From: Folioceros fuciformis
Lineage: Eukaryota
Direction: 5' to 3'
DNA length: 29,640 bases
NCBI GenBank assembly: GCA_049999805.1
Contig: JBNGIO010004579.1
Location: 62,001-91,640 of the forward strand
Shown: positions 128 through 20,323 of the stretch, piece after piece
Layout of the letters: the number at the start of each line of letters is the position of its first letter
Position numbering within the stretch: the stretch's first letter is position 1
Notes under the pieces: generated by a model
Seen by the model: only the letters and a program-made list of their open reading frames with translations
Database searches by the model: none
Told to the model about the DNA's origin: nothing
Made by a program: the position numbers and the translations under genes

Positions 128-2497
128 ATGCCCGTTTGTGCTCGAAGTGTTTGGTTGATTCTACGCAGTAGACTGACAGGATATCAGTCCTTGGGTGCAC
201 CGCGGGCTCGTGGCTTGGCTGGGTACAAGTCCAAGCTCTGCAGTGAGCACAGCAGAAAGTGCACAGTTGCCCGCTGTGGTAGGTATGCCGTGCTCCTCAG
301 ATCCACTCACTACCTTGCCCAGCCCTTGGAAGGCTCGGTTCGCAGTTTGGATGATGCCGACAAGTTGGCGAGAACTGCAGGGTATGCCGACCCTGTGGAA
401 TGGAGAAAGCTGTGTGATCATGGACAGCTTCTCAAGGCCTTTGAGGTGCTGGTCCGCATGGCTGACAAGGGTGACTTCGTGTCCAGGGACATGCTGTATC
501 ATCTGCTCAAGGGTTGTATTGAGTACAGGGATGTGGGCATCGGCAGGCGTATTCATGCCGTGTCTGCTGGCCTTGGGTATGGCGGGAATTCCTTCTTAGC
601 CACTCATATCATTCGCATGTATGCTTCTCTGGGTAGCCTGGTGGAAGCGAGCCAGACATTCAGCCTGTTTCCTGCACCCGACGTGTTTGTGTGGGCGTCC
701 ATCATTTCTGCACATGCTGAGCACGGCCAGCCGGATGATGCGGTGCAACTTTATCACCAAATGAGGCAGTCAGGTGTCCAGGCGAACGACTACGTGTTTG
801 TGGCGGTCTTGAAGGCCTGTGCTCGTGGAGGGGATTTGACGTCCGGAAAGTGGGTCCATGGTCATGTCACGGACACTGGGGGGCGGCCTGGTGCCTTTGT
901 TGGCAGCTCGCTTGTCGACATGTATGCCAAATGTGGCAGCCTGCAGGACGGCCGTGCCGTATTCGACAGCTTGCCCACGAAGACTGTAGTGACATGGAGT
1001 GCCATGATCAGCGCATATTCTCAGCATGGCTTTGGTCAGGAAGCCCTCAATCTGTATGGTAGAATGGAGCGAGAGGGCCTGACGCCAGGGAACGACGTCA
1101 CGTTTGTGGCCCTTTTGAAAGCCTGCGCTAGCATTGGAGCCTTACAGGAAGGACGGCGGTTGTATGCTCAGATTCTCAGCTGGGGAGTCAGTGTGAGCTT
1201 AATTGTCGGTAATACCTTACTGGACATGTTCGCGAAATGTGGGAGTCTGGCGGATGCGCGCATAGTGTTTGACGGGTTGCCAGCCCGGAGTTTGGTCTCG
1301 TGGAGTGCCATGATTGCAGGATATGTGCAACATGGGCGTGGGCAGGAGGCTATCAATCTGTTCGATAGTATGTTGCAGGATGGAGTCGTTCCAGATAGCT
1401 TCACACTTGTTTGCGCTTTGAAAGCATGTGCTGACGTAGGAGCTAAGCAGAGAGGCCAGAAGATTCATGCCCAGGTTCTGGAAATGGGACTAGAAACAGA
1501 TTCGTTCATCGGGAATGCTTTGGTGGACATGTATGCCAAGTGTGGGAGTATGCACGACGCTCAAGGAGTTTTCTCCAGATTGTCCAGAAGAGATGTGGTG
1601 ACATGGAATGCCCTGATTCATGGCTATGGCCTACATAATAATTGCAACACGGCAATGAGGTGTTTTCTGGAGATGCAGCAGCAGGGAGTGGAGCCGGATG
1701 GTGCTACATTCCTCTCTCTGCTCATGGCATGCAGCCATGTGGGCCTGGTGAATGAGGGCCAGTATTTCTTCAGGTTCATGGTAGAAGAGCATGGCACGCT
1801 GCCCACTGCCGAACACTACAGTTGCCTGGTGGACCTTCTAGGGCGAGCCGGGCATTTGGAAGAAGCAGAAACTGTGCTGCAACGGATGCCTTGCCAACAG
1901 GACGTCGTCGGGTGGATGTCCCTCCTGAGCGCTTGCCTAACTCACTGTGACGTGGAGAGAGGGAGGAGATGCTTCAATCGTCTGACTGAAGTGGATCGCC
2001 AGCAAGCTGCGGCATACATACTCATGTCACACATATACAGAAATGCTGGTCGTTGGGAGGCTGTAGCGGAGATAGAACGCTTGAGAAATTGCGTGGGTGC
2101 TCAGAAGAAGCCTGCGATGGCCTTCATTGAGGTGGGCAGGACAGTGCACGAATTCATTGTAGGGGAAGCGCGTGCCGATACTTCTGGAAAGCTCATGGCC
2201 ACAAATTTCCTCATCCAGCAGGAGGTCCAAGTCACATTCCCACAGCCAGAATTGAGGAAGTGGAAAGGAGATGTTCTATGCGGTCATGCAGAGAAATTAG
2301 CCCTGGCGTTCGGTCTTCTGAACACTCCTGACGGGACTCCTTTGCTGGTGACCAAGAACCTGCGGATGTGCGATGACTGCCACAATGGCACAAAGATTTT
2401 GTCCCGGCTTGAAAGACGACCGATCATAGTTAGGGACAATCATCATGTGCATCACTTCAAAGATGGCGTATGTTCTTGCCAAGATGGGAGGATTTGA
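128..2497 (+). CDS. PLS-class PPR protein with E1-E2 and DYW:KP-type domain (candidate U-to-C RNA editing factor)
   Basis: Intronless 789-aa ORF. R/S/L-rich N-terminus resembles an organellar presequence. About 14 P/L/S motifs end in P2-L2-S2 (VVTWNALI..., [21 protein letters not shown]), followed by E1 and E2. KPAMA replaces the PG box, then [17 protein letters not shown] and [15 protein letters not shown]. Confidence 0.95.
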
Positions 2498-2582
2498 TCT
2501 CCGTAGATATCTGCCCTCTGGTGTAGAGCTTGGGCAAATGATTTACCTCAAATTCTGGGGTCTGTCTGCGTGACAAATTATC

Positions 2583-5500
2583 TCAGTTGTTGTTCACGAA
2601 TCTGACTGTTGTTGGCCCACAAAGTCGCTTTGCCAACACCGTCACTTGTATTAGTCTGTCGCAGTTGAATCTGTCTGGTGGGTTGGGTCGGTGGAAGAAA
2701 GCAGTACAAGTTGCCACAGTCAGGGGCGTTGGATCCAATTTCCACTTCGGACTCCAAATTTTGACGTGCATCTGTTGGTGCAGTGTTGGGCCCCGTCCAT
2801 TTGTGTGCTGTATCCTATTTTGACATGTGCGTGCTGTGAGGCTATACGATAGCTGGCTTCTCGCTGTGACCAAAGAAATGTTCTTGTTTTCGTCAGAAAA
2901 GTTCGAGTCCAAGTATGGGGCGTACCCTGCGATGGGAATTTTGCAGGACACCTGTCTGGGCTTTGCTTCACTTTGGGGATGCTTCTCGTCCCCAACCAAA
3001 AAGCTGTGCACCAGTCCGTCCTCGTCTGTCCACCAGCTCTGGCCTGGCTGCTTCCAAGCTCCGATTATTGTTCTCTTCGCTTGGATCTCCTGTGCCTCCT
3101 CCCACATGTGAGCACTGGTGTATATGTTTGACATTATCACATATGCCGCGGCATCTCGGCTGTCCAACTTCACTGCTTCATTGAAAGCATGGTTTCCCAC
3201 CTCTACGTTGCTCCACTTTCGACAGGCAGCCAATAGGGTGTGCCACATTGAAGCATTACACAAGACAGGCAGCGATTTGACCAAAGATAAGGCCTCGTCT
3301 AGGAGTCCTGCACGGCCCAATAGGTCCACCATGCACGAGTAGTGCTCCACTGTGGGCGTGATGCCATGCTGTCTGCTCATATCCTCGAAGTATTGTCTAC
3401 CCTTATGCACAAGACCTGCATGACTGCATACTGATAGTACACAAAGGAACGTGATGCCCACAGGCCGTATGCCATCCTCTCTCATTCTGTGGACCAGATT
3501 GAAGACCATTTCGCTATCTCCTTGGGAGGTGTAGCCTGCAATAAGTGCAGTCCAGGTGACAACGTCTTTTTCGGGCAATGCATCGAACACTAGCTGTGCA
3601 TCTATCATGCTTCCGGCCTGTCCGTACATGTGAATCAAACTGCCAGCTATAAACATGTCAGCTTGAAGCTCTTGTTCTCTAATCTGTGCATGTAGCTGCC
3701 GTCCAAGATGCAAAGCTGCCACATTTGCACATGCCTGCAGTAGGCACACAAATGTTATGGAATCGGCTACGGCTGTGCCTTCTCGTTGCATGACACGGTA
3801 GAGCCGAAAGGCCTCCTGGCCCATGCCATGTTGGGAATACCCCCCTATCATGGCGTTCCATGTCACCGCATCTTTCTGACCAAGTCCGTCAAACACTCTC
3901 TGAGCATCTTCCAAGCTGCCGCACTTTGAATACATGTTCACCAGACTACTGGCTATAAACCCATCAGTTTCATGCCCTTGCTCTCTGATTTGTGCATGAA
4001 GCTCCCTCCCCATCTCCAAAGCCGGTGTACCGACACTGGCACATGCCTGCAGGAGGCACAGTAATGTTACAGGATCGTTCACTCCAATGCCTTTTTTTTG
4101 CATAGCACTGTACAGCTGAAGGGCTTCCTGCCCCATACCCTGTTGAGAATACCCTGCTATCATGGAAGTCCACGTTACCACATTTTTCTGACCAAGTCCG
4201 TCAAACACTCTTTGAGCATCTTCCAGGCTGCCACATTTTGCATACATGTTGACTAAACAGCTGGATATGAACACATCACCGTCATGTCCTTGCTCTCTAA
4301 CTTGCGCATGAAGCTGCTTCCCCATCTCCAAAGCCGCTGTGCCGACACTAGCACATGCCTGGAGGAGGCAAATAAATGTCACTGAAGTAGGCTTAACGAG
4401 GCCGACTTCTCGCATACCACTGTACAGCTGAAGAGCTTCCTGCCCCATGCCCTGCTGGGCATACCCTGTTATCATGGCATTCCATGTCACGACGTCTTTT
4501 TGACTGAGTGTGTCAAACACTCCCTGTGCGTCTGCCAAACTGCCACACTTTGCATACATATTCACCAGACTGCTGGCTACAAACACGTCCCCTTGATGCC
4601 CCTCCTGTCTGAGCTGCGCATGGAGCTGCTTCCCCATCTCCAATGCAGGGGTACCCACACCTGCACATGCCTGCAGGAGGCAAACGTAGGTCACGACATC
4701 TGGTACTGTCAGGCCGTCGTCCTGCATAGCGCTGTATATGTGAAGGGCTTCCTGTCCCTTGCCCAGCTGAGAATATGCTGCAATCATGGCATTCCATGTC
4801 ACCACATCTTTCTGACTAAGTCCGTCGAAGACTCTCTGGGCGTCTTCCAAGCTGCCACACTTAGCATACATATTCACTAAACTGTTGCCAACAAGCACAT
4901 CAGCTTGATGTCCTCCTGCTCTGATTTGAGCATGAAGCTGCTTTCCCTTTTCCAAACCCGGGTTGCCCACACTCGAACACGCCTGCAGCAGGCAAACAAA
5001 TGTCACAGAATCTGGCATGACGATGCCTTCCCTTTGCATAGCACTGTAGAGACGGAGGGCCTCCAGCCCTTTGCCCTGCTGAGAATACCCCGCCATCAGC
5101 GCATTCCATGTCACCACATCTTTCACAGCAAGACCGTCAAACACTCTCTGAGCATCTTCCAAGCTGCCACACTTTGCGTACATGTTAACCAAGCAGTTGC
5201 AGACGAACAAACCGGGATGACAGCCAGTGGCCAGAATATCAGCATGAACCAACTGCCCAGTTTTCAAGTCTGCTGCCCTTGCACAGGCTTGGAGAGCTGC
5301 CACAAACACATGGCCGTCTGGCTTCACACTTGACCTGCGCATCCGATGATAGAGATGTACGGCCTCACTTTCTTTTCCATGTCGAACATGGGCAGAAATT
5401 ATGGCAGTCCACGTGAAGTTGTCCGGTTTAGCAACGCCTTGAAAAACATCCATCGCATCTTGCACCCTGCCATGAGAAGCGTACATTCTCAGAATGTGGA

Positions 5501-5960
5501 AGCCCAGGAACGTGTCTGATTGGTATCCCTTTCTCACCGCTAAGGCATGGACACGCCTACTCAGAACAAGATCCTTCTTCAATACACACCTCTTCAGCAC
5601 TGCGTACAAAAGACATATCGAAACACAACGGTCTGTCTGCACGAGAACTCCCAAAGCCTCGACAGCCTCGTCGACACGGCCATCATTACACACCCTGCTT
5701 ATGGTTTCATCCGTTACGCCCCGATCATAGCCTGCAGGCCCGCCAAGCTGGTGAGAATCATCCGGGAAACTCGTGTCCGAGGCACAAAGACCTGGCTGCC
5801 TGTCCAACCAAGGCGTTCGCTCACACGAGTCATTGAAGCAATGAACCTCCTGGGCCTGCCTGTGACGGATGCCTGATCTATCTCCAGGCCGACATCCTCC
5901 CCGAAAGGGTGAATCGAAGAGAATCGCACGTGCCTCAATTGCAACGCCCGACACAACCAT
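2583..5960 (-). CDS. PLS-class PPR-E1-E2 protein with WW-type PG box and frameshift-truncated DYW domain
   Basis: Intronless 1125-aa ORF with about 23 PPR motifs, P2-L2-S2, E1, E2 and WKQPGQSWWTDEDGLVHSFLVGD. Similarity to DYW persists to AGYAPY...KNISL. No in-frame HxE or CxxC follows. Confidence 0.92.
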   Translation of the reverse strand: MVVSGVAIEARAILFDSPFRGGCRPGDRSGIRHRQAQEVHCFNDSCERTPWLDRQPGLCASDTSFPDDSHQLGGPAGYDRGVTDETISRVCNDGRVDEAVEALGVLVQTDRCVSICLLYAVLKRCVLKKDLVLSRRVHALAVRKGYQSDTFLGFHILRMYASHGRVQDAMDVFQGVAKPDNFTWTAIISAHVRHGKESEAVHLYHRMRRSSVKPDGHVFVAALQACARAADLKTGQLVHADILATGCHPGLFVCNCLVNMYAKCGSLEDAQRVFDGLAVKDVVTWNALMAGYSQQGKGLEALRLYSAMQREGIVMPDSVTFVCLLQACSSVGNPGLEKGKQLHAQIRAGGHQADVLVGNSLVNMYAKCGSLEDAQRVFDGLSQKDVVTWNAMIAAYSQLGKGQEALHIYSAMQDDGLTVPDVVTYVCLLQACAGVGTPALEMGKQLHAQLRQEGHQGDVFVASSLVNMYAKCGSLADAQGVFDTLSQKDVVTWNAMITGYAQQGMGQEALQLYSGMREVGLVKPTSVTFICLLQACASVGTAALEMGKQLHAQVREQGHDGDVFISSCLVNMYAKCGSLEDAQRVFDGLGQKNVVTWTSMIAGYSQQGMGQEALQLYSAMQKKGIGVNDPVTLLCLLQACASVGTPALEMGRELHAQIREQGHETDGFIASSLVNMYSKCGSLEDAQRVFDGLGQKDAVTWNAMIGGYSQHGMGQEAFRLYRVMQREGTAVADSITFVCLLQACANVAALHLGRQLHAQIREQELQADMFIAGSLIHMYGQAGSMIDAQLVFDALPEKDVVTWTALIAGYTSQGDSEMVFNLVHRMREDGIRPVGITFLCVLSVCSHAGLVHKGRQYFEDMSRQHGITPTVEHYSCMVDLLGRAGLLDEALSLVKSLPVLCNASMWHTLLAACRKWSNVEVGNHAFNEAVKLDSRDAAAYVIMSNIYTSAHMWEEAQEIQAKRTIIGAWKQPGQSWWTDEDGLVHSFLVGDEKHPQSEAKPRQVSCKIPIAGYAPYLDSNFSDENKNISLVTARSQLSYSLTARTCQNRIQHTNGRGPTLHQQMHVKIWSPKWKLDPTPLTVATCTAFFHRPNPPDRFNCDRLIQVTVLAKRLCGPTTVRFVNNN
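3640..5200 (-). repeat. Intragenic tandem repeat: five 312-bp (104-aa S-P-L) units
   Basis: The homologous CGSL-encoding anchor starts at + positions 3913, 4225, 4537, 4849 and 5161, an exact 312-bp period. The translated units are near-identical. Outer boundaries are approximate. Confidence 0.9.
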
Positions 5961-6449: not shown

Positions 6450-9400
6450 CTAAGCTCCACCGGTATCTTGTCTGGGACGAAACTTGTAGATCTCGGGAGG
6501 TTGACTGAGTTTAGTGTAACCTGATACCAGAGCAGTCCATGAGCTTTCATCCTGGGAGGGTATGCTGTTGAACACTTCGCGAGCGTCATCCATGCAGCCA
6601 CACCTAGCGTACATGTCGATCAGAGCTGCTGCGATCGCAGGATCTGTCTGGAGACCACGTCTCGCCACATTTGCATGAATCCTTCTGCCCTGCTGTACAG
6701 CTGCTGTGTTCGCGCACAGGTGAAGCATGCCGATGAGCAGGAACCTGTCTGGCGGTGTGATCTCCTGATCCATTTGCCAGAAGAGGATGAATGCCTCCTG
6801 CTCATCTCCGTGCTTTGCGTACGCCCCTATCATTGTCGTCCAGAGTACAACATCTCGGTCGTGAATGCTTTCGAAGACATGACGAGCATCGTCTATGCTC
6901 CCACACTTGCTGTACATCTGTATGGCTGATGAAGCTACAATCACATCCGACTCGAAGCCCATGTCCATGGCAAGGATGTGGAGACGCTTGCCGTTGTCTA
7001 AAGCTGCTGGACTTGTACAGGCACCGAAGATGCTGACAAAGGTCCACCTGTCAGGCTTCCACCCATCTTCAAGCATCTCGTTAAACAGATTGAAAGCTTC
7101 CTGGAACTCTCCATGTCTGGAATATCCTCCTATGATAGCATTCCAGAGGACCACATCCTGCTTCGGCATGTTCTCGAAGACCTCCCTCGCATCTAATAAG
7201 CTCCCACATTTGGAGTACATGTCAACTACGGCGGTCGCCAGCATGATGTCCGATGAAAGTCCCTTCCGACAAATGTCCATGTGAATCTTCCTGCCAGTTT
7301 CCAAAGCACTAGGATTTGCACAAGCTTGTAAGACGCAAAGAAAGGTAATCTTATCCGGCTTTGCACCTTTGAGTAGCATTTCGCTGAAGAGAGCTAAAGC
7401 CTTGTCCCCTTCACCTCGCTTGAAGTAGCCTCCAATCATTATGTTCCACGACACCACGGTGTGCTCATGCATTTCATCAAAAACCTGGCGGGCATCCTGT
7501 ATGCTTTCGCAGTTTATGTACATGTCAAGGAGACAGTTAGCTACAAACATATCAGACAGGAGAGCCCTTTCCCTCACAAGGGAGTGCAGTTCCTTTCCTT
7601 CTGCTAAGGATGAGCAGGAAGTTAGGAGAGTACAAAATGTGACCCTGTCTGGTTTCACATCCTCTGATTCCATGAGCCCAAATTGTTGATGAGCTTTGCT
7701 CATATTCCCGTGCCTCAGATTCTCCAGTATCATTTGGTTCCAAGTGATTACATCTCTCACAGGCATATTATCGAAAAGTTCCTGTGCTTTTTGGATACCG
7801 TCACACCTGGCATACATTGCGAGAAGAGCACTTGTGATTACCACATCTGAACCATATCCAGTCTCGGTGATCAACTTATGTATCTGCCTTCCCTCTTCCA
7901 GGTCCTTGGGGCCAGCACAAGCAGATAGAATGCTAACAAAGGTCACCTGAGTTGGGGGCACACATTCCAGTATCATGCTACTGAAAAGAGAAAATGCTTC
8001 GTTACACAGGCCACGTCTTGCATATTCACCTATCAATGCAGTCCAGGAAAAGGCACTTCGAACACGAAGCCTATCAAAAGCTCGGCGGGCATCTTGCAAG
8101 CTCCCACATTTGATATAGGCGTCTAGTAAACAATCTCCCAAGCCTTCGAGGCCACAGGATTCAATTTCGGCGTGGATCAAATGGCATTGTTGCAAGGCTG
8201 CTGGACCACGACATGCTTGCAAGATGCTGGCAAATGTAGCTTGATCTGGAGGCTCCCCCTGTAGCTTCATCTCATTGAAGAGTTCAAAAGCCTGATCAGG
8301 GTCTCCGTGATTTGCATAGCCCCCAATCATAATGCTCCAGGAAACCTTCGTTTTCTTTACGATGCTGTTGAACACTTCCCTTGCTTTTGAGAGACTGCCA
8401 CAAATTACATACATGTTGACAAGAGAATTCTCCAAAACGGTGTCAACTGCTCGCTCACTCTTGATAATGAGAGCATGAATCACCATACCCTGTTCAAGGC
8501 TTGCTGAACTCGAGATGGAGTTGAGAACGGAAGCAAAGGTAACTGCATTGGGCATTACTGTCCCTGAACCCATGCGCTGGAAAAGTTGTACGGCCTCATC
8601 AATGAGTCCATGCCGTGCATAGCCTGCAAGCATCATATTCCATGCAACCAGTCCATAGTCAGCGATGCCATCAAATACTTGCCGTGCCAGCTCCATGTTC
8701 CCACATTTAGCATACATATCGACAAGGGTGCTCATCAATTGCACATCTGTATCATACCCACAGGTAATGAGCCTGGCATGAATACGCTTGCCCTCTTCAA
8801 GCGCCACCGTATCCGTACAAGCCTTCAGCACTGTGCCGAAGGTGACCTGTGTTGGCTTCACACCATGTAGTTCCATTTGCCAAAACACTTCGATGGCCTT
8901 TCTGCTCTGGCCATTCCTGGAATATCCTGCTATCAAACTCGTCCATGTGATAACGTCCCGTCTCATCATGGAATTGAACACTCTTTGAGCATCCTCCATA
9001 CTTCCACATTTTGCGTACATCGCTATAAGACAGTTACTTAGGACAATGTCTGAGTGTAGCCCACATCTAACCAAGTTGGAGTGAATTCTCATGCCCTGCT
9101 CCAGCCCTGAGGGGCCAGTACAAGAGCAAAGGACGTTGACAAAAGTGCTCTCCTGTGGCTTCAGTGCTGCCTGTTGCATCTTTTCAATCGCCTCCACAGC
9201 CTTGCCCACTTGTCCCTCCCTGACGTAGCCTGCGATCAACACATTCCATGACACTTCATCTGGTTGAGAGAGTTTTGAGAACAGTTCACAAGCCAAAACA
9301 ACGTTCTCACATCTCACATACATTTCCAGCAGGGCGTTTGCAACACCCATATCCGATTCCAGCTCACTTCGAGCAACCATTTCATGTACGAGGCACCCAC

Positions 9401-10115
9401 GTTCGAGGAAGCCAGGGCTGGACAACGCCTTAAGGATGGTAATGAACGTGATTCTGTTTGGAGAGACACCCTCTCTTGCCATATGCTCATACAAGTGGAA
9501 CGCCTTCTCACCCTGTTGATATTTGGCATACCCTGCAATCATGGTATTCCATGATACGACATTCCGGATTGACATGGCATCAAAAACTTTGCGTGCATCT
9601 GCAACACTTCCACATTTGATATACATGTTCAGGAGGGTATTTTGCAGAAACATGCTCATCCCCACCCCGCTCCGAATTATGTGGGCATGGACCTGCTTCC
9701 CCTCCAAGAGGGATTTCGTGTTTACACATCCCCGAAGAAGTGCAGCATAAACTTCAGAGTCTGTTAGCACGCCTCGTCGCTCCCTGTTATCCAAAATATG
9801 TAACGCTTTCCTCAGTGGCCCTGTTTTGCTGATCCTGATCAGCTCCCTGTCCGATCCGACGCTGCTGCTGGCCATCTGACCTGTAGACGCACCTGGCCAG
9901 CTCTCTCTCACGTTTTGTCCCGCTGTTGACGACCCACCTGGAACAGCCATAGTAACTCTTGGCAATCCACGTCTCAGTAGTGGGCATCTGCATCGCCAAG
10001 GATTCTCACCATCCCTACTGGCGCTTCTCACCACCTCCTCCCCTCCAGGCAATCCACAGCGAAGAGAACCATTGACGAGACGAAACTGCGGGTTGGGCTG
10101 TCCCAGAATCTTCAT
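6450..10115 (-). CDS. Long PLS-only PPR protein (about 32 motifs, no E/DYW)
   Basis: Intronless 1221-aa ORF with regular L-S-P triplets from SEVYAALLRGC to PAIAAALIDMYARCG, ending in a partial P motif. No P2-L2-S2, E or DYW. An alternative start lies at 9950 (MAVPGG). Confidence 0.92.
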   Translation of the reverse strand: MKILGQPNPQFRLVNGSLRCGLPGGEEVVRSASRDGENPWRCRCPLLRRGLPRVTMAVPGGSSTAGQNVRESWPGASTGQMASSSVGSDRELIRISKTGPLRKALHILDNRERRGVLTDSEVYAALLRGCVNTKSLLEGKQVHAHIIRSGVGMSMFLQNTLLNMYIKCGSVADARKVFDAMSIRNVVSWNTMIAGYAKYQQGEKAFHLYEHMAREGVSPNRITFITILKALSSPGFLERGCLVHEMVARSELESDMGVANALLEMYVRCENVVLACELFSKLSQPDEVSWNVLIAGYVREGQVGKAVEAIEKMQQAALKPQESTFVNVLCSCTGPSGLEQGMRIHSNLVRCGLHSDIVLSNCLIAMYAKCGSMEDAQRVFNSMMRRDVITWTSLIAGYSRNGQSRKAIEVFWQMELHGVKPTQVTFGTVLKACTDTVALEEGKRIHARLITCGYDTDVQLMSTLVDMYAKCGNMELARQVFDGIADYGLVAWNMMLAGYARHGLIDEAVQLFQRMGSGTVMPNAVTFASVLNSISSSASLEQGMVIHALIIKSERAVDTVLENSLVNMYVICGSLSKAREVFNSIVKKTKVSWSIMIGGYANHGDPDQAFELFNEMKLQGEPPDQATFASILQACRGPAALQQCHLIHAEIESCGLEGLGDCLLDAYIKCGSLQDARRAFDRLRVRSAFSWTALIGEYARRGLCNEAFSLFSSMILECVPPTQVTFVSILSACAGPKDLEEGRQIHKLITETGYGSDVVITSALLAMYARCDGIQKAQELFDNMPVRDVITWNQMILENLRHGNMSKAHQQFGLMESEDVKPDRVTFCTLLTSCSSLAEGKELHSLVRERALLSDMFVANCLLDMYINCESIQDARQVFDEMHEHTVVSWNIMIGGYFKRGEGDKALALFSEMLLKGAKPDKITFLCVLQACANPSALETGRKIHMDICRKGLSSDIMLATAVVDMYSKCGSLLDAREVFENMPKQDVVLWNAIIGGYSRHGEFQEAFNLFNEMLEDGWKPDRWTFVSIFGACTSPAALDNGKRLHILAMDMGFESDVIVASSAIQMYSKCGSIDDARHVFESIHDRDVVLWTTMIGAYAKHGDEQEAFILFWQMDQEITPPDRFLLIGMLHLCANTAAVQQGRRIHANVARRGLQTDPAIAAALIDMYARCGCMDDAREVFNSIPSQDESSWTALVSGYTKLSQPPEIYKFRPRQDTGGA

Positions 10116-10743
10116 AGCAACACCAGGTGACCATCACTGATTCAGGAAAAGACCCAGGGAAGACAGTCCGCGTCGCCTCGCCCAAAGGATGCAGACAGGG
10201 TCAATAGGCGGCTCTAACCTTCAGCTCTTCGTTCTCGCAACAAAGTATAAATTCCCCTTCGTTTAGCCTTTGGTACCCAATATCTCGCCATTTTGTGGTC
10301 TCCCATTTCAGCAAACCTCCTTGGAGGACCATGCAGGCAGCCAAGAGCAGCCTCAGCTGCTGCAATTCTACGAGGGTGAACATGCTTTCAGGCTTGCCCA
10401 AAACATGCATTCCTCCTGCCAAGCTAGCTCTGGGCTTCACCCCTTTCCTCCCCGGGACGCACAAACTCCTCCTTCCCTGCTCTACCTCTTTGTCAGGCAA
10501 GTTCATCTGTAGCCTGAAGATGTCCAGGTTTGGGATGGAAGTTCTGAGATGGAGATCTGCAGACTGAAAGAATCGTCCGCTGTGTTACAGCTGACAGGCC
10601 ACATCATCGAATGCAACCCCAATCACCAAGATGTGTTGTCGGACTTGAGCAACTGTATAGCTCCTGCAACTTATCCCTTCCGCTACCCTTTTGTGGAGCC
10701 GTTCGAGATGGTTTCCAGTCATTCTTCGTACCTATCATTGCAG

Positions 10744-12445
10744 CTATGGTGCTGCTTCCATCCAGGGAACAGGAAGGCCGACTATGGAGGATACGTACAG
10801 TGTTGTTAAGGAACAGAAAGGCCCAGAGCCCCTCTTCTTTGGGGTCTTCGATGGGCACGGTGGGGCTGCCGTTGCTGAGTAAGGAGTCCCTTCTACTCTA
10901 GGATTTTTTTGGTGCCACATTCAAGGAATACGTTGATGACGGGGTATAGTTAAACTATGAACATGCTGTGTAGGATGCTGAAGACTGATTTCTGGCCGGT
11001 GTACAAGAAAAACCTCTCAGGTGGTGGGATCCTTCCTGTGTGCTCGTATTCGTCTGATAAGTTGCTGCAGTCTGTCTGACCGCAAGGTGCAGGCATCGTT
11101 GTATGTTTACACTTTGGTTTGTTTGCTGCAGGACCTGATCTGAGACGGGCCACTGTGGCTTCCTACCTAGAAGTGGACAAGAAAGCTCTGGTTTGCCACT
11201 CATGGCTCCGGTGCAGATCTTAGTGCCTAGCTGGATATCCGTGCCCAGCAGCATTTAGTTGATGAGTCCATGTTTGTGCAGGCTCCTCCTCCTGGTCTGT
11301 TTGGTGCATTACGCGAACGTGGCCTCGGTGGGTCTCGTTGTGGCTCCACAGCCGCGACAGTGGTGTTGCTAAGGGCACAAGGTCTGTACTACGGGAACTC
11401 AATAGCCAATGGGCAACCGATGTGTGCTTTTCGATGAAGGATTCCTTGAAAACAATGCACCATTCACATCAGGTGAGAAAGAGGTTCTCGTTGCTGCAAA
11501 TGTTGGAGATGCACGAGTTGTTCTTGCAAGGGCAGGACAGGCCATTCAACTAACCTTCGATCACAAGGTGAAGATTGTTTGCAGGAAGACGGAAGAGTGT
11601 AGGAGTTTTGATTGCTTTGCCTTTTGGAATCAGTGTTTATTGCGGGCTGGAAGCCTAAATGTTTCAAATTTCTTGGTGCAGCCAGATGTGGAGTCAGAGA
11701 GGAAGAGGATAGAGGCCAAGAATCCTACACCCAAGAAACCTCTCGTACGATCTTGGGAACACTGTTCCAGGATGTTGCAAATGTATGAGGATGTTGTGCG
11801 TGCCTACCTGATACTCGTACCTTTCAGGTGGTAAATGTTGGAGGGACGTGGCGTGTAGGTGGTCTTCTTGCCCTCTCCCGTGCCTTCGGGGACGTCTATC
11901 TGAAAGAGTAGGCACTCAAACCTTGTGCTCCTTGGGTTGGTGCTCCATACGATTTCTGGTACGACTTTGATCCTGATTCCTCGTTTGTGAAGCTGGACTG
12001 ATGGAAAAATGGAAGGTGCGAGCGGAGGTTTCGGCCTGACTGCTGAACCGCATGTGGCGGTGGAAACCCTTTTAGCCGGTACCTGAACTCGCTGAAACCT
12101 CCTCATTGCCAAGCTTAAGAGTACTTCTAGCCCTAACACATCCCTCCTGCTGTTTCCAGAGGACCAGTTCGTCATCCTGGGGACTGATGGCCTCTGGGAG
12201 CATATCAGCAACCAAGAAGTTGTGAACATATGTCTCGGTTCTAGGTGAGTTCCGATGGGACTCTTTGCATTGGCAAAAGTGGAATCAAGCAAGACAACTG
12301 ATGTGCTCACCATCTTGTGTGTTACAATCTCCGATCCAGCCGTTCTCTGACTGAGATCGCCGAGAATTTGGTGGAGCTAGCGCAGCAGCGAGGGACTACA
12401 GATGACATCACGGTTCTCATTGTTCGTTTAAACCAGGAGAGCTAA
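10744..12445 (+). CDS. Protein phosphatase 2C (PPM family), multi-exon; 5' exons unresolved (possibly from ATG 10189)
   Basis: Exons separated by short GT-AG introns encode GRPTMED, FFGVFDGHGG, GSTAATVVL, ANVGDARVVL...LTFDHK, LALSRAFGD, ILGTDGLWE and TTDDITVLIV. Stop TAA at 12443-12445. Confidence 0.92.
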
Positions 12446-12939
12446 TCATCGGGTCCGTAGCGTAGCTTCGTAGGAAGGGCATCCAGCCCTACGTTTGTGC
12501 GTTCGAAGGTCACAATAAACAACCGAAAGTGTAAAGCTCGGGGACGGTAACAGCTCTTGGCACGGATTCACATTTACTTCGTGCTACCGTTGTGGGTAGC
12601 CATGGCGGTTTCGCTCCCTCCAAAACGGAAGGATTCCGAACATGGGGCATTGGATGGAGAAACGTCGCCTTGTCGGGAATTCACTCGAGCCAAACCAAAT
12701 CCGGTAGATCAAAGCAAACTGTCCGTCTCTCAAATCCACGACCTACTAACCTACTACGAGGATGAAGATCCAACGAGATACATCTTATGTCGGTAGACCC
12801 TATCACAAAAATTATGCATTGATAATAATTATAATATGAATCTTACAACATTATGTATTAATGTCATATATATATTGTCGGTACAGATGTCACGAAACTG
12901 AGGACTCCACAAAGTCACAGATTATAGGAAACCCAGGAG

Positions 12940-13225
12940 GGAGGACTCCACGAGAGATGAGGAACCCCAGAATGGACGAGTCCACGAGAGATCAGCAACC
13001 CCAGCGATGGAGGACTCCACGAGAGACCAGCAACCCCAGGAAGGACGACTCCACAAGGGATCAGGAACCCCAGAATGGAGGAGTCCACGAGAGATCAGCG
13101 ACCCCACAATGGCGGGCTCCACGAGAGATGAGCAGCCCCAGAGATGGAGGACTCCACAAGAGATGAGCAACCCCAGAGATGGAGGACTCCACGAGAGATA
13201 AGCAAACCCAGAATGGAGGACTCCA
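12940..13225. repeat. Minisatellite: 8 full copies plus 1 partial copy of a 34-35-bp unit
   Basis: Consensus GGAGGACTCCACGAGAGATSAGCAACCCCAG(A)RAT. Unit lengths are 34,35,34,34,34,35,35,34, directly abutting with no spacers. Confidence 0.95.
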
Positions 13226-13367
13226 AACAAGAGTTCAGCAACTCCAAAATGACAGAAAGACCAGGAACACAAGAAAAATGAAGGACTCCGCAGACGTTCT
13301 GGAATGGTGTATAAGTATGTACGTAGCCTGTAAAGTAAACCACGCACAGCAAACCTTTTTGATGCCC

Positions 13368-15443
13368 TCAAAAGCGTTTCTCGTTGGCGAGGTAAGTATA
13401 AGACTTGAACGTGCGGTTCAAACGACACATAACAGCATCCGAGTCAAGGAGACAAGCCTCGCGACGGCTTTCTTCAACTCGTTTCTGCAGGACCTGCAGC
13501 ATGGAATCAGGGTTGTGCTGCATCAGGCGCACAACGTCGGCTACCGCTTGTCCTGGCATACACTCCTCAATCTCGTAGTTGGTAGAATGACCGGCAGCCT
13601 CCTTCTTGTGCAGCACATGCACTATGTTGGTGTTCCCGAACAGATTGTGCATTCCCCCCAGGATTTCCTGGTAAGCGCCAGCGAGAAACATCCCCATGAT
13701 GTACGCCCGCCCAGGCTGCAAGGCATGCACTTCCAGGTACCTCTTCTGCATGCCTTCTGCTTCCTTCCCAATGAAGGAAGAGACCTTTCCATCACTGTCG
13801 CAGGTGATGTCGCTGAATACAGCCCGACTTGTCGGTTCCTCCTCAAGCCGATGGAGCGGCACTATGGGGAACAGTTGTTCGATGGCCCAGTAATCGGGAA
13901 CGGACTTGAAAAGGGAAAGATTCACATGGTAAGTTGCGTTCACAGGGGAAGAACCTTGCGCGGGGACCATGCTGGACGGATCATACTCGTTGATGAGAGC
14001 GTACGCCTGTGCTGCATACTTTTGCTTGTTATGTTCAGCTTCCATGACAGCACCCACGATCTCCTCGTGAATGGTCTCCACGGCTGCACGAGCCTTAAGA
14101 CTGACCAGGCCGAGGCTAAACAGACGGGCACATTCTGTCCTCATAGCTGCACACCGTTCCAGACCTGTAAAGCAGTCGACGGATAATTTCAGGTCCTCGT
14201 ACATGCGTAGGATCTGCTCGGGCAGAGGCTCTGTACAGGTCATCTCGTCCAGCACATTCCACGCACCGCTTCCTGCAGAACTGTCCGCTGCCCTGGATCC
14301 CTGTACGCCCTTATGATGTGCTGAGAAAACATCGAACACCAGAACAGACTGGTGCGACACGATGCCTCTTCCGCTCTCACAGCAAAGGATGGGGTGCTGG
14401 ACATTCCTCCGGCTGCAAGCTTCTCCAATGGCACCCACCACCTCCTCTGCGTATTGCTCCATGGTGTACCCGATTGACATGTCAGACGAGGAGTCATGAG
14501 ATCCGTCATAATCTACCCCAAGGCCCCCTCCAATGTCTATGATGTTCATATCAGCCCCCATCAGAGCGAGCCCACAGAAGAGGTGAGCTGCTTCGGCAAC
14601 CCCCTCCTGGACAACCTCCAACGATGGGATCTGGGACCCAATGTGAAAGTGAAGAAGTTTCAAGCACTCCAGCATCCCATTTGCCCTTAGCTCCTCCACA
14701 ACTCTCACGATTTGGGGAATCGACAAACCGAACTTCCCGTCGTCGCCAGATGTGCCTCCCCAGTGCCCGCCGTGCTTGGTACTCAGCTTGGCCCGGAGTC
14801 CAATGACGGGCCTGACACCGAGCTCCCGGCTGACTTTGATCACAACTTCCAGCTCTTCTACCTGCTCCAGGACGATGATCGCATTCAGGTTCATGCACCG
14901 AGCTGTGAGCGCCAGAGCCACGTACTCATAATCCTTGTACCCATTGCATATGAGCATGGCTCTAGGGCTTGCCTTGCACATGCACGTCATGACAGTCAGC
15001 AGCTCGGGCTTGGACCCAGCCTCCAACCCGTAGTCGAAATCCTTTCCGAAAGCCACGATGTCTTCCACTATGCGACGGTCCGGATTACACTTCACGGGAA
15101 AAACACCTCGGAACAGCCCCTTATACTGCTGCAATGCGATGCCCCTCTCAAACGCCCTCTGCAACGTCTCCAGTCTGTGTTTCAGGATTTCCGGGAATCT
15201 GATAATAAGGGGCATACTCATCCCCTTCTTCCCGACAGCGTCCTCCACCACATTCATCAGGTCGATGCCTTCTTCAGCCTTGGTTTCCTGTCCGTGCGGA
15301 TGCACGCACATGTGACCCTTGTGATTCACCTTGAAGTACGGTGCCCCCCATCCGTCAACCTTGTAGATGCTGGCAGACTTTTCAACGCTCCAGGGCAGGC
15401 GAAATATTGCAGCGGCTCCGGCATTGGCTCCTTCGTGAGCCAT
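13368..15443 (-). CDS. ADC: Arginine decarboxylase (PLP-dependent), intronless
   Basis: 691 aa with GWGAPYF, GVFPVKCN (PLP lysine), GLEAGSKPEL, CNGYKD, LLHFHIGSQI, DIGGGLGVDYDG, CESGR, DITCDSDG and GAYQEILGGMHNLFG. Confidence 0.97.
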   Translation of the reverse strand: MAHEGANAGAAAIFRLPWSVEKSASIYKVDGWGAPYFKVNHKGHMCVHPHGQETKAEEGIDLMNVVEDAVGKKGMSMPLIIRFPEILKHRLETLQRAFERGIALQQYKGLFRGVFPVKCNPDRRIVEDIVAFGKDFDYGLEAGSKPELLTVMTCMCKASPRAMLICNGYKDYEYVALALTARCMNLNAIIVLEQVEELEVVIKVSRELGVRPVIGLRAKLSTKHGGHWGGTSGDDGKFGLSIPQIVRVVEELRANGMLECLKLLHFHIGSQIPSLEVVQEGVAEAAHLFCGLALMGADMNIIDIGGGLGVDYDGSHDSSSDMSIGYTMEQYAEEVVGAIGEACSRRNVQHPILCCESGRGIVSHQSVLVFDVFSAHHKGVQGSRAADSSAGSGAWNVLDEMTCTEPLPEQILRMYEDLKLSVDCFTGLERCAAMRTECARLFSLGLVSLKARAAVETIHEEIVGAVMEAEHNKQKYAAQAYALINEYDPSSMVPAQGSSPVNATYHVNLSLFKSVPDYWAIEQLFPIVPLHRLEEEPTSRAVFSDITCDSDGKVSSFIGKEAEGMQKRYLEVHALQPGRAYIMGMFLAGAYQEILGGMHNLFGNTNIVHVLHKKEAAGHSTNYEIEECMPGQAVADVVRLMQHNPDSMLQVLQKRVEESRREACLLDSDAVMCRLNRTFKSYTYLANEKRF

Positions 15444-15510
15444 TGGTGCTTTCAGCTGTCACCCACAAATGCACACACACTCGAGATCTTAGTTAACAGT
15501 GGCTTCTGTT

Positions 15511-15534
15511 TCACTTTTCACTGCTGCCACTCAT
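15511..15534 (-). promoter_or_regulatory. Candidate 7-codon upstream ORF (MSGSSEK) of ADC
   Basis: ATG AGT GGC AGC AGT GAA AAG TGA on the - strand ends 67 nt before the ADC ATG. Its inclusion in the mature mRNA is unverified. Confidence 0.4.
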
Positions 15535-16773
15535 GTACTGTCAGTGGAAACGGGATCTTGAAGGAGGACGCCTGGAACCGCGGGCAGAAGCTGTGTGGAA
15601 GTTAGCACTGTTAGCGAATTTCAGAGCCCAAGTGGGTGCAAGCTTCCTCGTTTCTTTTGCAAGTTGCAGACTACTGCGTCTTTGTTCGTCCGCACGAAAG
15701 CAAAGCCAAGCCACCGCTCCCTGAAAACCTAGATGCAACACAGCCCACCACGTTTGTCAGTCACCAGAAAGCTTAAGCTGCAACACAGTAATGTGCGCCT
15801 TTTACAGCAAGGTTAATGAGCTACACAAATAAGAAAACAATGACGGGCCATCAAAACGTTTTCTGCGGGGCAGACCAGCTGGCTCCTTCCTACCAGTCCT
15901 TCAATGCAGCGGATCCGGGTCCAGCTGCGATCGCAAGAATAATATGTAGCAGCTACTTGCAACGCAACAGCGCCGAGGTGAGTGGATGGAAGCTTGCAGG
16001 CAGCTCACAGCTGGCCAGGCCACCTCTGGACGGAAGGAAGGCAGATTGAGAACGCTCACAGCGGTGTGGATTAGAGAGGAGGGAGGCTTGGCGGGGGCGG
16101 TGCAACGGCTCTCAGGGATTGTACGGCAGGGCACGTACACGAACCCAGCACATGTGGAGGAATTCTGGGATATCTTGATATTCTGGACCCGCACTCCTGA
16201 AGGCAGGCTCAACTGATGGGCGGAGGCCACGGTAGGCGGGAAGCTCCTCGAACTTGGAACATAACCTTGATTTGAAACGTCTACACCCACCGAACTTCGA
16301 CACTCTCGAGTCGTGTTTCACAGAGTGATGGCGACAGAGCGAGGGAGTGCCAGCACAAATTATTCCCGCTGCCCCCCCTTAGCCCTACACCTGATTCAGA
16401 AATTAACACCGGCAGCGGCCTTCCATCAAAGCAGTGGCAACTGGGAGGGTCCAGTCTGCAGACCTGTTGATATGCTGCACAAGCTCTAGCTACTCCAACA
16501 TATCACTTCTCCAACATACATCAGACTACCACCAGCCGAAATTTTCATATATTTAGAGTTTCTGGAGTAAATGGAGAGACCTCGACCGCTGTTGCAGCTG
16601 CGTTGCACCCAAACAATTGGGACATCGAATTCGTGGATTCCATGGTCAGGACACGGGGGTGGAAATCTATACAGCTTCCGATTGCCAGCTCTCGGGTACA
16701 CGTCCGGAAGATGGGAGCACACTTTGGTGGAAGTAGTCGATGAGAGTAGCGTTGTCGATGCCATTGGGCAACG

Positions 16774-16930
16774 TTTTTCAAGGGTCGGCTCCTAGGTCAA
16801 GGGGTCGGCTCCTAGGCCAAGTTTCAAAGAATGATGTGCTCCTTTCACGCGGGTGACGTTTTTCAAGGGGTCGGCTGTTAAGGCCAAGTTTCGCCTGTTA
16901 AGGCCAAGTTTCAAAGAATGAATGAATGAA
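16774..16930. repeat. Nested local duplications
   Basis: TCAAGGG(G)TCGGCT x3, AGGCCAAGTTTC x3, GGCCAAGTTTCAAAGAATGA x2, and a short (GAAT)n tail. Confidence 0.75.
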
Positions 16931-16961
16931 TACAGTGTTCTCCTTCCACGCGGGTGGTCGT

Positions 16962-17041
16962 TATAACGACTATTGCCATGTCGCGTGACCCGGAAGAGCC
17001 ATATAACGACTATTGCCATGTCGCGTGACCCGGAAGAGCCA
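16962..17041. repeat. Perfect 40-bp tandem duplication
   Basis: TATAACGACTATTGCCATGTCGCGTGACCCGGAAGAGCCA at 16962-17001 and 17002-17041. Confidence 0.95.
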
Positions 17042-18600
17042 CCGGTTACGAAGTCAAAGACCATCGTTGATGTTGGAAATTTGCTTTCTTGCTGTTGTTT
17101 AACTGCTGTAAACCCTACAACCCAGTTGTTGTTTCCTCATTATGAATACAAGTTTTAATAGAGTATTTATGGCCGTTCATTTTAACATCATAAATTTTAT
17201 CTTTTTTTCTTTGGCACTAGGCCAATAGGGTTCCAAGAAAGGTGTCATTTTGAGTATGTACGGAGCTTGATCCTGGTCCCCATAAGTAGAAAACGAAGTG
17301 CGCCCATAGACCACCGTACTCTTGCAATTAAGTGGGTATTTTTAAGCAAGTTTTTTTAATTGAAAATAAAGTTTTCAAAATGCAGGTACGCTGGTAGACC
17401 AGCACACTCGTTAAGAGACTATTATTTTTAAGAAATAAAAGTCCAAAATTTAATTTCATACATTAGAAAACTCCCATTTCAAAAACTCAACACCAACCAC
17501 TACACCATTCCCCATTTATATACATACTAATGTTATTGATAAGATATATTGATATTAAAAAAATGCATGGGCCTAGAGGAGAGTGGGCCGGTTTATCAAC
17601 GTAATATGATGTCAGTGTGGAGTGGGCCGGTAGACCGACACACACTCTTGAAGAAAATGTTGGAGATCAAGAACCATAGAACATTGACATTATACCTCTA
17701 ATGAAGGTCTACAATGACAGCAACCTAATTCGGAAAAACTTGTAGGTCCTGAAACACGACCAAAAAACACTTCGGCATAAAAATGACGAAGTCTTGTTAG
17801 ACGTTTAGATCAAACTATTCAGTAAAAAATAACATAACTAAACTAATATATATGTCTACACTGTTATGCAACACATTTTTTCTGCACATTTACGCATCAC
17901 TGAAAATAAACGCACATAAATGTGGATACATGACATGAATTTCAAACGTTCAAATCCGGCAAAGCCCGAAATGGCATAATTCGACCGTTTTGATCGGACG
18001 TTATTACATTAATATTGATGTTGTAAGCGGAGATGTGCCCAGACATCTCGAAAACTTGGGGATCCGACTACCAGAAGTGAGGAGGTCCTCGTCTAGGAAT
18101 TTAGAGAGTTTGATTAGAGGAGCACCTACTTCTGGTACCCCCCGCATCCCTGTTCAAACCGTTTCTTTACCTAAGCTAACCTAACTCCTAGATTGGTTAG
18201 CAACTAACTTTAGTTCGCTTAATCCCGCTCAGTGTCTAACCTCTAGGTCTAACCTTGTTTCCTTCATCTAGCTCTAGCGGCTATGTTCTAGCATGCCCTA
18301 CGCGTACTCTGCTGCGGCCATTACTCTTATGTCAATAGCCTCATCTGGACGCAGATCAGGTGTCCAGTCCGTCTCGTTGAGCAGCTCTTCAGCTCATTGG
18401 CTCGTGATGACAGCCGGTTGTAGCAGATGTAACACTACCATTTGTTTACTATGTAGGATCAACATTTAGCTTTTCCAAATGAACTACATATACGAAATGT
18501 TAGCAAGTCCATGACTTCAGTTATACTTCTCTTCATGTAGACGGAATTAACATTCGAGGCCGTCAGCATGCTAGCAAGTCGATGCCCTACTATGTTGTGG

Positions 18601-18646
18601 AGGGTTTAGGGTTTAGCAATTACGGTTTAGAGTTACCCTAAACCCT
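18601..18646. repeat. Inverted pair of plant telomere-type (TTTAGGG) motifs
   Basis: AGGGTTTAGGGT (18601-18612) and its exact reverse complement ACCCTAAACCCT (18635-18646), separated by 22 nt. Confidence 0.8.
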
Positions 18647-18698
18647 TTGGTGTGCAAAAGTGTACCAGGATGCTTTAAACAAGCATTGAGTTCAACTC

Positions 18699-20045
18699 AT
18701 GGAGGAGAGGAAAAAACGGAACAAGCATAGATCCGAAGGGTATACAAAACCATACAAGTATATGTTGTTGTTTATTGATGGCATAGACCAAAAGAATATT
18801 ACATTGCCGCACATTCTCAGATGGCCAAAGGAATTGAAGGAGAAAAACAGAACTACGGTACATGTTGTGAGGTGTACGGTGTACAACCACAAATTCACTG
18901 AAAAGACATACCTACATTATGTCAATATATGGAACGGGGCCAATTTAACTATGTGCATTATTCATGATATCATTCACAGATATTCATGATATTCATATGA
19001 GGGTCTACTTCCATGGGTTTTATACATCTAGCTGGATAATACTTATCGTGAGAACAAAAACCAGCTACTATTTGGTTATTTGAATATGCTCGTTGGGCTT
19101 CAAGTATTTGTAAAAGTGTAGGCTGGATTCCTTTTTGTAGGCTGTACACATGACCAAGTACACCAAATGTTCTCTAGTTTCTCCAAGCATTTAAGGCACA
19201 AAGATTCGAAGACACTACCGCAACTCATTAATTCTGCATGGCTCATATACTCCGAATCCAGAGATTAAGCACTTGGCTGAAGTTCTAGACTGAGGGTTTG
19301 TCTAGCCTGTCATCCAAGGTGATGGTCGAGGGATGTACAAGGTTGCGGTGAAGAAGCTCAATAATCTTTCAAATCAACCTCAATTTAAAATAAACCGGGA
19401 GGAGAAACCAGGCAAGGGGTCTGTCACTGTAATCTAAAGCAAGCAATACGCAACCTCCCTTCTATGGGAACCCGAGGAGGTCTAGAGTATCTTACGCATG
19501 TATGTTCGATATACATTCATTAAACCATTGCAGGCAAAGGATAGGAAGGGGCCGGAAGGGCAAATGACTGCGAGGGAATGTATGGGACATGTGAAGAAAG
19601 GGTTGTTAAAACTAGCTACATACTTAACTGATGGGGAAATCGTGTGGTGGCAAGACTTCTGGCAAGATAAGAGGAAATTGCTGATATTGTGGACGACACT
19701 GTAGGTTTGGTACAAACGACCCCCTGGACATGGTACAATAGATCAAAAGCAGAAAGATTGTTTCAGCCTATGCAGGTACCAGAAGAGGTTATGTTAGAGG
19801 AAGCACTTCTACTTGACCTACTAGTGAGGACCATGTACATAGGCGCATATCGGAGTAATGGCAGACATGAGGCTGAGATTTCGTAGATGAATAGAGATGT
19901 CTTGGACATACAAAAAGGGATGTTCATAATCACACCATGTGAGGGTGATATACATAATCGAGAGTTTTGGGCAGCAAAAGTTGTGAGCACACATTTGACA
20001 GGTGTGGAGCCTTACTTGTTGCTGCATTTTGTTCCACAATCATGA
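18699..20045 (+). pseudogene. Degenerate DUF7869-type (Sola-like DDD) transposase
   Basis: Reading through stops in one frame gives FIDGIDQKNITLP...NGANLTMCII...LPWVLYI*LDNTYRENKNQLLFGYLNMLV...KV*AGFLFVGCTHDQVHQMFSSFSKHL. This matches the DGMDQ / QLDNxxRENKN / FLxVGHTHxDIDQxFS pattern as I recall it. Broken ORF pieces continue to about 20045. Confidence 0.75.
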
Positions 20046-20090
20046 GATCTTCCACCTAATGTAGAATCTTAGCTTCCTCCAATTACGTCC

Positions 20091-20323
20091 TCCACATGAA
20101 CTCTCTCAAAGCATGCATCTTGAGTGCATCTTGAGTGCTCATAGCTTGAGATGGTTTCCACATCAACTCTTTAAAAGCACGCATCGTGAGTGCTCATAAC
20201 TTGAGATCGTTTCCACATGAACTCTCTCAAAGCACACATCTTGATTGCTCACATCTTGATTGCTCACAGCTTGAGCTTTTCTTCAAAGGAACTCTCTCAA
20301 AGCACGCATCTTGAGTGCTCACA
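20091..20323. repeat. Degenerate tandem repeat, about four copies of a ~55-bp unit
   Basis: The core AACTCTCTCAAAGCACGCATCTTGAGTGCTCA recurs four times. Copies 1 and 3 carry internal micro-duplications (ATCTTGAGTGC; CACATCTTGATTGCT). Confidence 0.85.

Follow-up and report, generated by a model that had tools for sequence, protein, structure and literature searches.

We analyzed a 29,640-nucleotide stretch of DNA from Folioceros fuciformis (contig JBNGIO010004579.1 of assembly GCA_049999805.1, positions 62,001 to 91,640 of the forward strand; hereafter the window), which is nuclear DNA of a plant, hence eukaryotic, with a G+C content of about 50%, and found that the open reading frame (ORF) at positions 128-2497 of its plus strand is an intact gene for a PLS-class pentatricopeptide repeat (PPR) protein with a C-terminal domain of the DYW:KP type. 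Our reading of this gene, to which we assign a probability of roughly 0.65, is that it is an intact nuclear gene, probably transcribed, whose product is a PLS-class PPR editing factor of the DYW:KP class that is targeted to an organelle and is a candidate for editing in the U-to-C direction. The DYW:KP subclass of PLS-type PPR proteins was reportedly defined by Gutmann et al. in 2020 and Gerke et al. in 2020, and the Folioceros protein is one more member of this known class. As described in the excerpts of the cited papers on which we draw here and throughout, KP domains carry KP where the first box otherwise has PG, have HAE or HCE instead of HSE, and end in a variable triplet (PMC9478123, PMC11845758); they are missing the xHP residues and have Met where PG domains have Val (PMC9478123, PMC11845758; M92 versus V95 in PMC9478123); and the class occurs only in hornworts, lycophytes, and ferns, with DRH and GRP as hornwort variants (PMC9478123). 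The original prediction for this gene, made by a model from the letters of the window, had invoked the lineage restriction, the DRH and GRP variants, and U-to-C editing by designer KP proteins as its background, in agreement with that source (PMC9478123).

The ORF is uninterrupted over 789 codons, has no intron, and ends in a TGA stop at 2495-2497, and its translation and Pfam matches make it a complete coding sequence for a PPR-E1-E2-DYW:KP protein of 789 amino acids (aa). Pfam recognizes PPR motifs (E = 1.2e-63), the E motif (PF20431, E = 3.8e-13, residues 606-668), and the DYW_deaminase family (PF14432, E = 8.4e-30, residues 713-786). Motif slicing leaves 89 N-terminal residues (128-394) before the first PPR-like motif; the first 60 of these contain nine arginines, eight leucines, seven serines, six alanines, and a single acidic residue. 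Read from this Arg/Ser/Leu-rich composition alone, without a targeting predictor, the segment is probably an organelle-targeting presequence. The PPR array that follows (residues 90-592; 395-1903), delimited by motif slicing and by Pfam PPR and PPR_2 matches, consists of about 15 motifs of canonical length (31-36 aa each) in the order P-like, L, S, then three repeats of P-L-S, then P2-L2-S2. The fifth and last residues of its P and S motifs are, in order, T,D (S), A,N (P), S,T (S), S,N (P), N,S (S), S,D (P), N,D (S), N,D (P2), and S,D (S2). Under the PPR code as we assume it to operate, these motifs would presumably read G, two positions without an assignment, A, C (in preference to U), G, U, U, and G, with L motifs lying between. 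The array is joined by an E1 motif (residues 593-626) and an E2 motif (residues 627-660), together at 1904-2107 and identified by the Pfam E_motif match and by motif slicing, to the deaminase-like domain of DYW:KP type (residues 661-789; 2108-2494), whose assignment draws on PF14432 as well as on the profiles, trees, and structural model described below.

The four features on which the original prediction had rested, namely KPAMA, HAEK, CDDC, and a GRI ending, were all found where it had placed them, in the frame of this one ORF. Translation and alignment show the KPAMA box (K661-P662-A663-M-A665; 2108-2122) in the place of the PG box: the column that is Gly in 85% of PG domains is Ala in 93% of the 28-member KP clade that includes the Folioceros domain, and the next diagnostic column of the box is Ala in 89% of KP domains and Ser in 94% of PG domains. 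In the alignment, H720-A721-E722 (2285-2293), followed by K723 to give HAEK (2285-2296), supplies the His ligand of the first zinc site (Zn1), a KP-specific Ala, and the catalytic Glu; the middle column of this HxE motif is Ser in 100% of the 163 PG domains compared and Ala721 in the Folioceros protein. Lys743 (2354-2356) falls in the alignment column of Lys88 of designer KP domains, a column that is Lys in 96-99% of sequences across all clades. In M747-C748-D-D-C751-H752 (2366-2383), M747 is the KP state, C748 and C751 are Zn1 ligands, and H752 is a ligand of the second zinc site (Zn2); the M747 column is Met in 98-100% of the domains in two inner KP clades, of 28 and of 44 members, and in 76% of all 77 KP domains, and Val in 65% of PG domains. 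A gap of four columns lies opposite the 'SHPQ' of PG domains, so that the xHP residues are missing. The equivalent of the DYW motif (2450-2494) aligns as H775, C782, and C784, which are Zn2 ligands, and D786, followed by G-R-I, and the C-terminus reads C782-S-C-Q-D-G-R-I789. The prediction that GRI takes the place of DYW therefore holds as to the ending but not as to a simple replacement of the triplet, because the conserved Asp786 is kept and the aligned tail is one residue longer than is usual in DYW domains. With zinc ligands assigned by homology to OTP86 (PMC7611903), the full catalytic and zinc set is present (H720, E722, C748, C751, H752, H775, C782, C784, and K743). The domain is in the KP state at all of the strongly diagnostic KP/PG columns (both Ala residues of the box, HAE, Met747, and Val774), and none of the four PG hallmarks (PG box, HSE, xHP, and DYW tail) is present.

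By sequence comparison, the domain belongs to the DYW:KP class and not to the PG class. Residues 600-789, used as a query, matched 205 proteins, 120 of them listed; among those listed, 26 proteins (P0002-P0027) at 48-58% identity have KPA-like boxes, HAEK (25 proteins) or HVEK (one), and non-DYW ends such as DRH, GRP, DHH, and DMF, and the earliest fully canonical PG/HSE/DYW match is P0033. Combined with a second search of 1.84 billion representatives (2256 matches at E up to 0.001, 150 listed), this gave a pooled set of 264 proteins including the query, from which 24 partial domains were dropped to leave 240 near-complete ones. For the trees, we masked 21 alignment columns, namely those of the box and of all residues following CSC, the Met/Val column, and the middle position of HxE. 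In FastTree, a KP clade of 77 members (support 0.999) stood apart from the 163 PG domains, with the Folioceros domain inside a clade of 28 (0.90) alongside DRH- and GRP-ending proteins. An IQ-TREE analysis (LG+G4) of 84 of the 240 rows, taking all 28 members of this clade, all 16 of a clade of fern HAE proteins, 14 of the 33 other KP domains, and 26 of the 163 PG domains, recovered the 28-member clade at 99/94, the fern HAE clade at 100/96, and the split between KP and PG at 100/99. Profile hidden Markov models (HMMs) agree with the trees: a KP HMM built from 68 sequences, which excluded the Folioceros domain and its eight nearest sequences, scores the domain at 173.1 bits, and the corresponding PG HMM, made from 163 sequences, gives it 139.0 bits, a difference of +34.1 bits for KP that lies within the span of 15 held-out KP controls (+17.3 to +43.1 bits) and apart from that of 15 held-out PG controls (-35.7 to -55.9 bits). 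The DYW:KP call of the original prediction is thus borne out, neither the trees nor the profiles having grouped the domain with PG-type domains, and this classification supports the further proposal of a candidate U-to-C editor of known class. Among the matches listed, the KP-clade members that carry a species name are all ferns (nine of nine, from Ceratopteris and Adiantum), with no seed plants, and no hornwort-named protein was found among the matches listed in either the domain search or the PPR-array search. From the sequence by itself, a hornwort origin is likely, given that the nearest relatives have the DRH and GRP tails of the hornwort variants, that the named fern proteins are further away (44-52% identity), and that the locus is tightly packed, with three PPR genes in 10 kb and introns of 81-114 nucleotides in a neighboring gene.

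The C-terminal domain, as modeled, has the DYW deaminase fold. Sequence searches of the PDB matched the synthetic PPR-DYW protein 9kfx (E = 8.6e-32), DYW1 (7w86, 2.3e-26), and OTP86 (7o4e, 5.3e-23), and an AlphaFold2 (AF2) model built on an 81-row alignment has a mean predicted local distance difference test score (pLDDT) of 83.6 and a predicted template modeling score (pTM) of 0.75. In Foldseek, this model matches 9kfx_A (E = 9.8e-14, query TM-score [TMq] 0.79) and OTP86 structures 7o4f and 7o4e (E = 1.6e-11 to 5.8e-10, TMq 0.70-0.75). With these PG domains of OTP86 and DYW1 (7o4e, 7o4f, 7w86) and with the synthetic 9kfx, the Folioceros domain shares the deaminase fold and two zinc sites (TMq 0.56-0.79 overall), whereas they are C-to-U enzymes with a PG box, HSE, Val, xHP, a DYW or DSW tail, and a conserved gating beta-finger.

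Within the DYW:KP subclass, the likeness extends to the KP box, HAE, Met before CxxC, the missing xHP, a non-DYW tail, the Lys88 equivalent, and the P-L-S/E1/E2 architecture, but the Folioceros protein ends in ...DGRI, one residue longer, instead of DRH or GRP, and its beta-finger is shorter and unconserved. The DRH and GRP hornwort variants, on which designer proteins KP1 (DRH) and KP2 and KP3 (GRP) were based (PMC9478123), share the 99/94 clade with the Folioceros domain at 51-61% domain identity. We considered membership in each of these subtypes and accepted neither. In DRH-type relatives, 'VHRF' is found together with a conserved finger, GHVPxTELVLKxVSExEKED, whereas the Folioceros domain has 'VHHF' and no such conserved finger, and the protein ends in DGRI and not in DRH; the contrast in VHHF and finger is our own observation and not a published definition of the subtype. 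GRP-ending relatives (P0006, P0018, and P0127) have Gly for the conserved Asp and Thr, Gln, or Glu for the Lys at domain position 103, the same substitutions as described for GRP proteins (PMC9478123), and the GRP subtype is ruled out by the retention of Asp786 and Lys756 and by a GRI ending with one extra terminal residue. The fern HAE proteins of Ceratopteris richardii and Adiantum capillus-veneris, which form the sister clade of 16, also have HAE, RMC, and KPA-like boxes, but are at 44-52% identity and have a conserved finger segment of 29 residues and aromatic tails (DMF, DSF, and DIF); designer KP6 was modeled on a fern-specific clade of KP proteins (PMC9478123).

Three sequencing runs (X1, X2, and X3) contain the gene. 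X2, whose label as RNA is only a guess, has 10 GT..AG joints between 10654 and 12338 that are missing from the DNA runs X1 and X3, and because these joints are lacking in the DNA runs, we take X2 to hold spliced RNA. X2 contigs span 267-1547 and 1519-3052 of the gene region with 0 differences. The gene is probably transcribed, the contigs being a hint in this direction given that the identification of X2 as RNA rests on the splice joints. X2 does not cover 12674-20000, which the DNA runs do cover; we take this as evidence neither way.

If the reading of the gene as an organelle-targeted candidate U-to-C editing factor is correct, the protein would be imported into an organelle by means of its N-terminal presequence, and its array of about 15 motifs would read a specific stretch of one organellar transcript by the PPR code, with S2 sitting about four nucleotides upstream of the edited base. 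E1 and E2 would bridge the array to the C-terminal domain, which would convert uridine to cytidine using the zinc center (H720, C748, and C751), Glu722, and Lys743, by the lysine Schiff-base or amination route proposed for designer KP proteins. We infer the import, the direction of editing, the target, and the compatibility of the variable beta-finger with activity. The behavior of the designer proteins speaks for the proposal: KP2, KP3, and KP6 edit U-to-C, with HAA and AxxA mutants dead (PMC9478123); Lys88 is essential for U-to-C editing in all three (PMC11845758); and a lysine Schiff-base model has been proposed (PMC11332814).

Several observations weigh against this reading. The activity of natural KP proteins was described as still unknown in a 2025 paper (PMC11845758), and designer KP6 also edits C-to-U in human cells (PMC9478123), so that the direction of editing does not follow from membership in the KP class. 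The Folioceros domain departs from conserved KP positions at domain positions 61 (Glu to Gly) and 118 (Ala to Asn), and has Pro at position 112, where most domains have Glu. A search with the PPR array (residues 60-600), in which 7916 of the 8000 candidates scored were matches at E up to 1e-30, yielded no orthologue, with a best identity of 48% among the 120 matches listed. The contigs give no strand, ends, or level of the RNA, and the identification of X2 as RNA is our own. The beta-finger, finally, is shorter and unconserved in the Folioceros domain and in its eight nearest sequences (P0002, P0003, P0011, P0013, P0017, P0019, P0020, and P0124). By alignment and the AF2 model, the end of the gating domain including the beta-finger covers residues 690-714 (2195-2269); this segment is divergent, about 4-6 residues shorter than in DRH, GRP, or PG domains, and has the lowest pLDDT of the model (56-75). 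'VHHF' is common to the Folioceros domain and its eight nearest sequences, as are varied tails (DNH, DHL, DSI, DHR, DHV, DDL, DDS, and DDT among the eight) and an unconserved segment immediately before LCGHAEK, which is 22-40 residues long in the nine with a mean pairwise identity of 0.13 over the segment and 0.68 over the core. In the other groups the segment is about 29 residues long, with segment and core identities of 0.43 and 0.68 among 19 DRH/GRP-like domains, 0.40 and 0.64 among fern HAE domains, and 0.46 and 0.64 among 40 PG domains. In OTP86, the gating domain extends from H837 to G891 and the beta-finger (875-890) lies immediately before HxE, and replacement of the finger with GGG markedly lowered C-to-U editing (PMC7611903).

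The finger bears most directly on the possibility that the protein is a catalytically impaired or drifting paralogue, which has kept its core, lost a functional gating beta-finger, and now binds RNA only, depends on a partner deaminase in trans, or is an incipient pseudogene. In favor of this are a segment that varies from 22 to 40 residues at 13% identity, where about 29 residues and 40-46% are seen elsewhere, the low AF2 confidence over it, the effect of the OTP86 replacement, and the failure to find an orthologue; and decay does occur at the locus, where the neighboring PPR gene at 2583-5960 of the minus strand has a decayed DYW domain. However, all 789 codons are open and every zinc, Glu, and Lys residue is intact, the core identity among the nine equals that of the DRH/GRP-like group and argues for continued constraint, the KP-profile score of 173.1 bits falls within the range of its relatives (167.6-190.4), the gene is present in RNA-derived contigs, and, in the discussion by Takenaka et al., U-to-C editing perhaps does not need strong autoinhibition (PMC7611903). 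On balance we consider an impaired paralogue unlikely. Less likely again is a KP-class protein that edits C-to-U, or in both directions, in vivo, as opposed to U-to-C alone. KP6 sets the precedent for both activities in human cells, a K88A change or the combination E64G-L113V-F133H switches it to C-to-U (PMC9478123, PMC11845758), and the Folioceros domain keeps Asp786, Lys756, and His776 (in 'HHF'), which are states common to PG domains; yet the KP state at every strongly diagnostic column, the nesting with DRH- and GRP-ending proteins at 99/94, and the presence of Lys743 argue for U-to-C. It is highly improbable that the protein is instead a C-to-U factor of the canonical DYW:PG type whose substitutions arose by chance, or that it belongs to the hornwort GRP subtype, since the single DYW model of Pfam, which it matches, and an ending one letter from GRP are set against a PG profile 34.1 bits below the KP profile, a PG split at 100/99, and, in place of the Asp and the Lys at position 103 that GRP-ending relatives have lost, a retained Asp786 and Lys756 and the extra terminal residue.

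The same variability could have another meaning. The Folioceros protein and its eight nearest sequences may represent a form of KP protein for which we found no previous description, in which constraint has been lifted from the beta-finger and the C-terminal triplet while the core is as conserved as in DRH and GRP proteins; we put this forward very tentatively and regard it as doubtful. A monophyletic third subgroup of nine members was rejected: FastTree gave it a support of 0.755, and IQ-TREE did not have it (two changes, a basal grade with supports of 12-51). Because IQ-TREE did not recover the clade, the nine are defined by shared characters only. In the literature searched we found no KP subgroup with a variable finger and tail, although the primary surveys and the supplementary KP alignments and trees of PMC9478123 and PMC11845758 may already show one. 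Judged by its sequence, the loose beta-finger and tail, not resolved as a clade, make the Folioceros domain mildly unusual.

Several other features of the sequencing data and of the window stand beside these results. At position 2496, within the stop codon of the KP gene, one X3 contig (depth 6.8) has T for G, changing TGA to TTA and adding three residues, while the base is G in X2 and in X1, which comes from the same sample as X3; the T could reflect an allele or a paralogue, or be an error. In all three runs, the summed contig word depth is 110-1350 over 1335-2001 and 2669-5336, compared with about 10-15 elsewhere, partial contigs are numerous, and loose ends occur at 1614, 4249, and 7477; the high depth fits PPR repeat words that are common to many genomic paralogues. 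Three PPR genes are packed into 10 kb of this compact locus. The convergent neighbor at 2583-5960 (minus strand) encodes a PLS PPR protein of 1125 aa that has both a PG box (KQPGQSWW) and an E motif and is 42-45% identical to the KP protein across the repeats; its DYW part is decayed, especially over 2583-2950, with an in-frame tail that has no HxE or CxDCH and a remnant 'GHSEK' in a shifted frame followed by a stop. The third PPR gene, at 6450-10115 (minus strand), encodes a protein of 1221 aa whose array is long (Pfam PPR_2, 1.8e-167) and whose ORF ends without an E motif or DYW domain. Beyond it, at about 10200-12673 (plus strand), lies a gene interrupted by at least 10 short GT..AG introns (81-114 nucleotides) that are spliced in X2, whose joined exons form an open frame of 402 aa with what we take to be PP2C-phosphatase-like motifs. 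At 13368-15443 (minus strand), an ORF of 691 aa matches the arginine/ornithine decarboxylases (Pfam PF02784, 3.6e-34), with weak matches to arginine decarboxylase helical domains. From 16000 to 26000, G+C falls to 42-46%, compared with about 50-54%, and the only ORF of at least 150 aa is at 25695-26345.

Genes of this kind are numerous in lineages with reverse editing, so that a further member is of limited consequence on its own. U-to-C conversion is the one pyrimidine transition for which activity is known only from consensus-designed enzymes, and this gene, being intact and probably transcribed, with a short array of about 15 motifs and all of the catalytic residues, is a sensible choice of native protein for a heterologous assay. 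Through its loose beta-finger, the importance of gating for the reverse reaction could also be examined in a natural protein. If the Folioceros protein and its nearest sequences do represent a KP form released from constraint in the finger and tail, and if they prove active, U-to-C editing by native proteins would be possible without the 'gated zinc shutter' autoinhibition found in C-to-U DYW domains, and a native domain with a short finger would be a possible simpler scaffold in which to study and engineer U-to-C chemistry.

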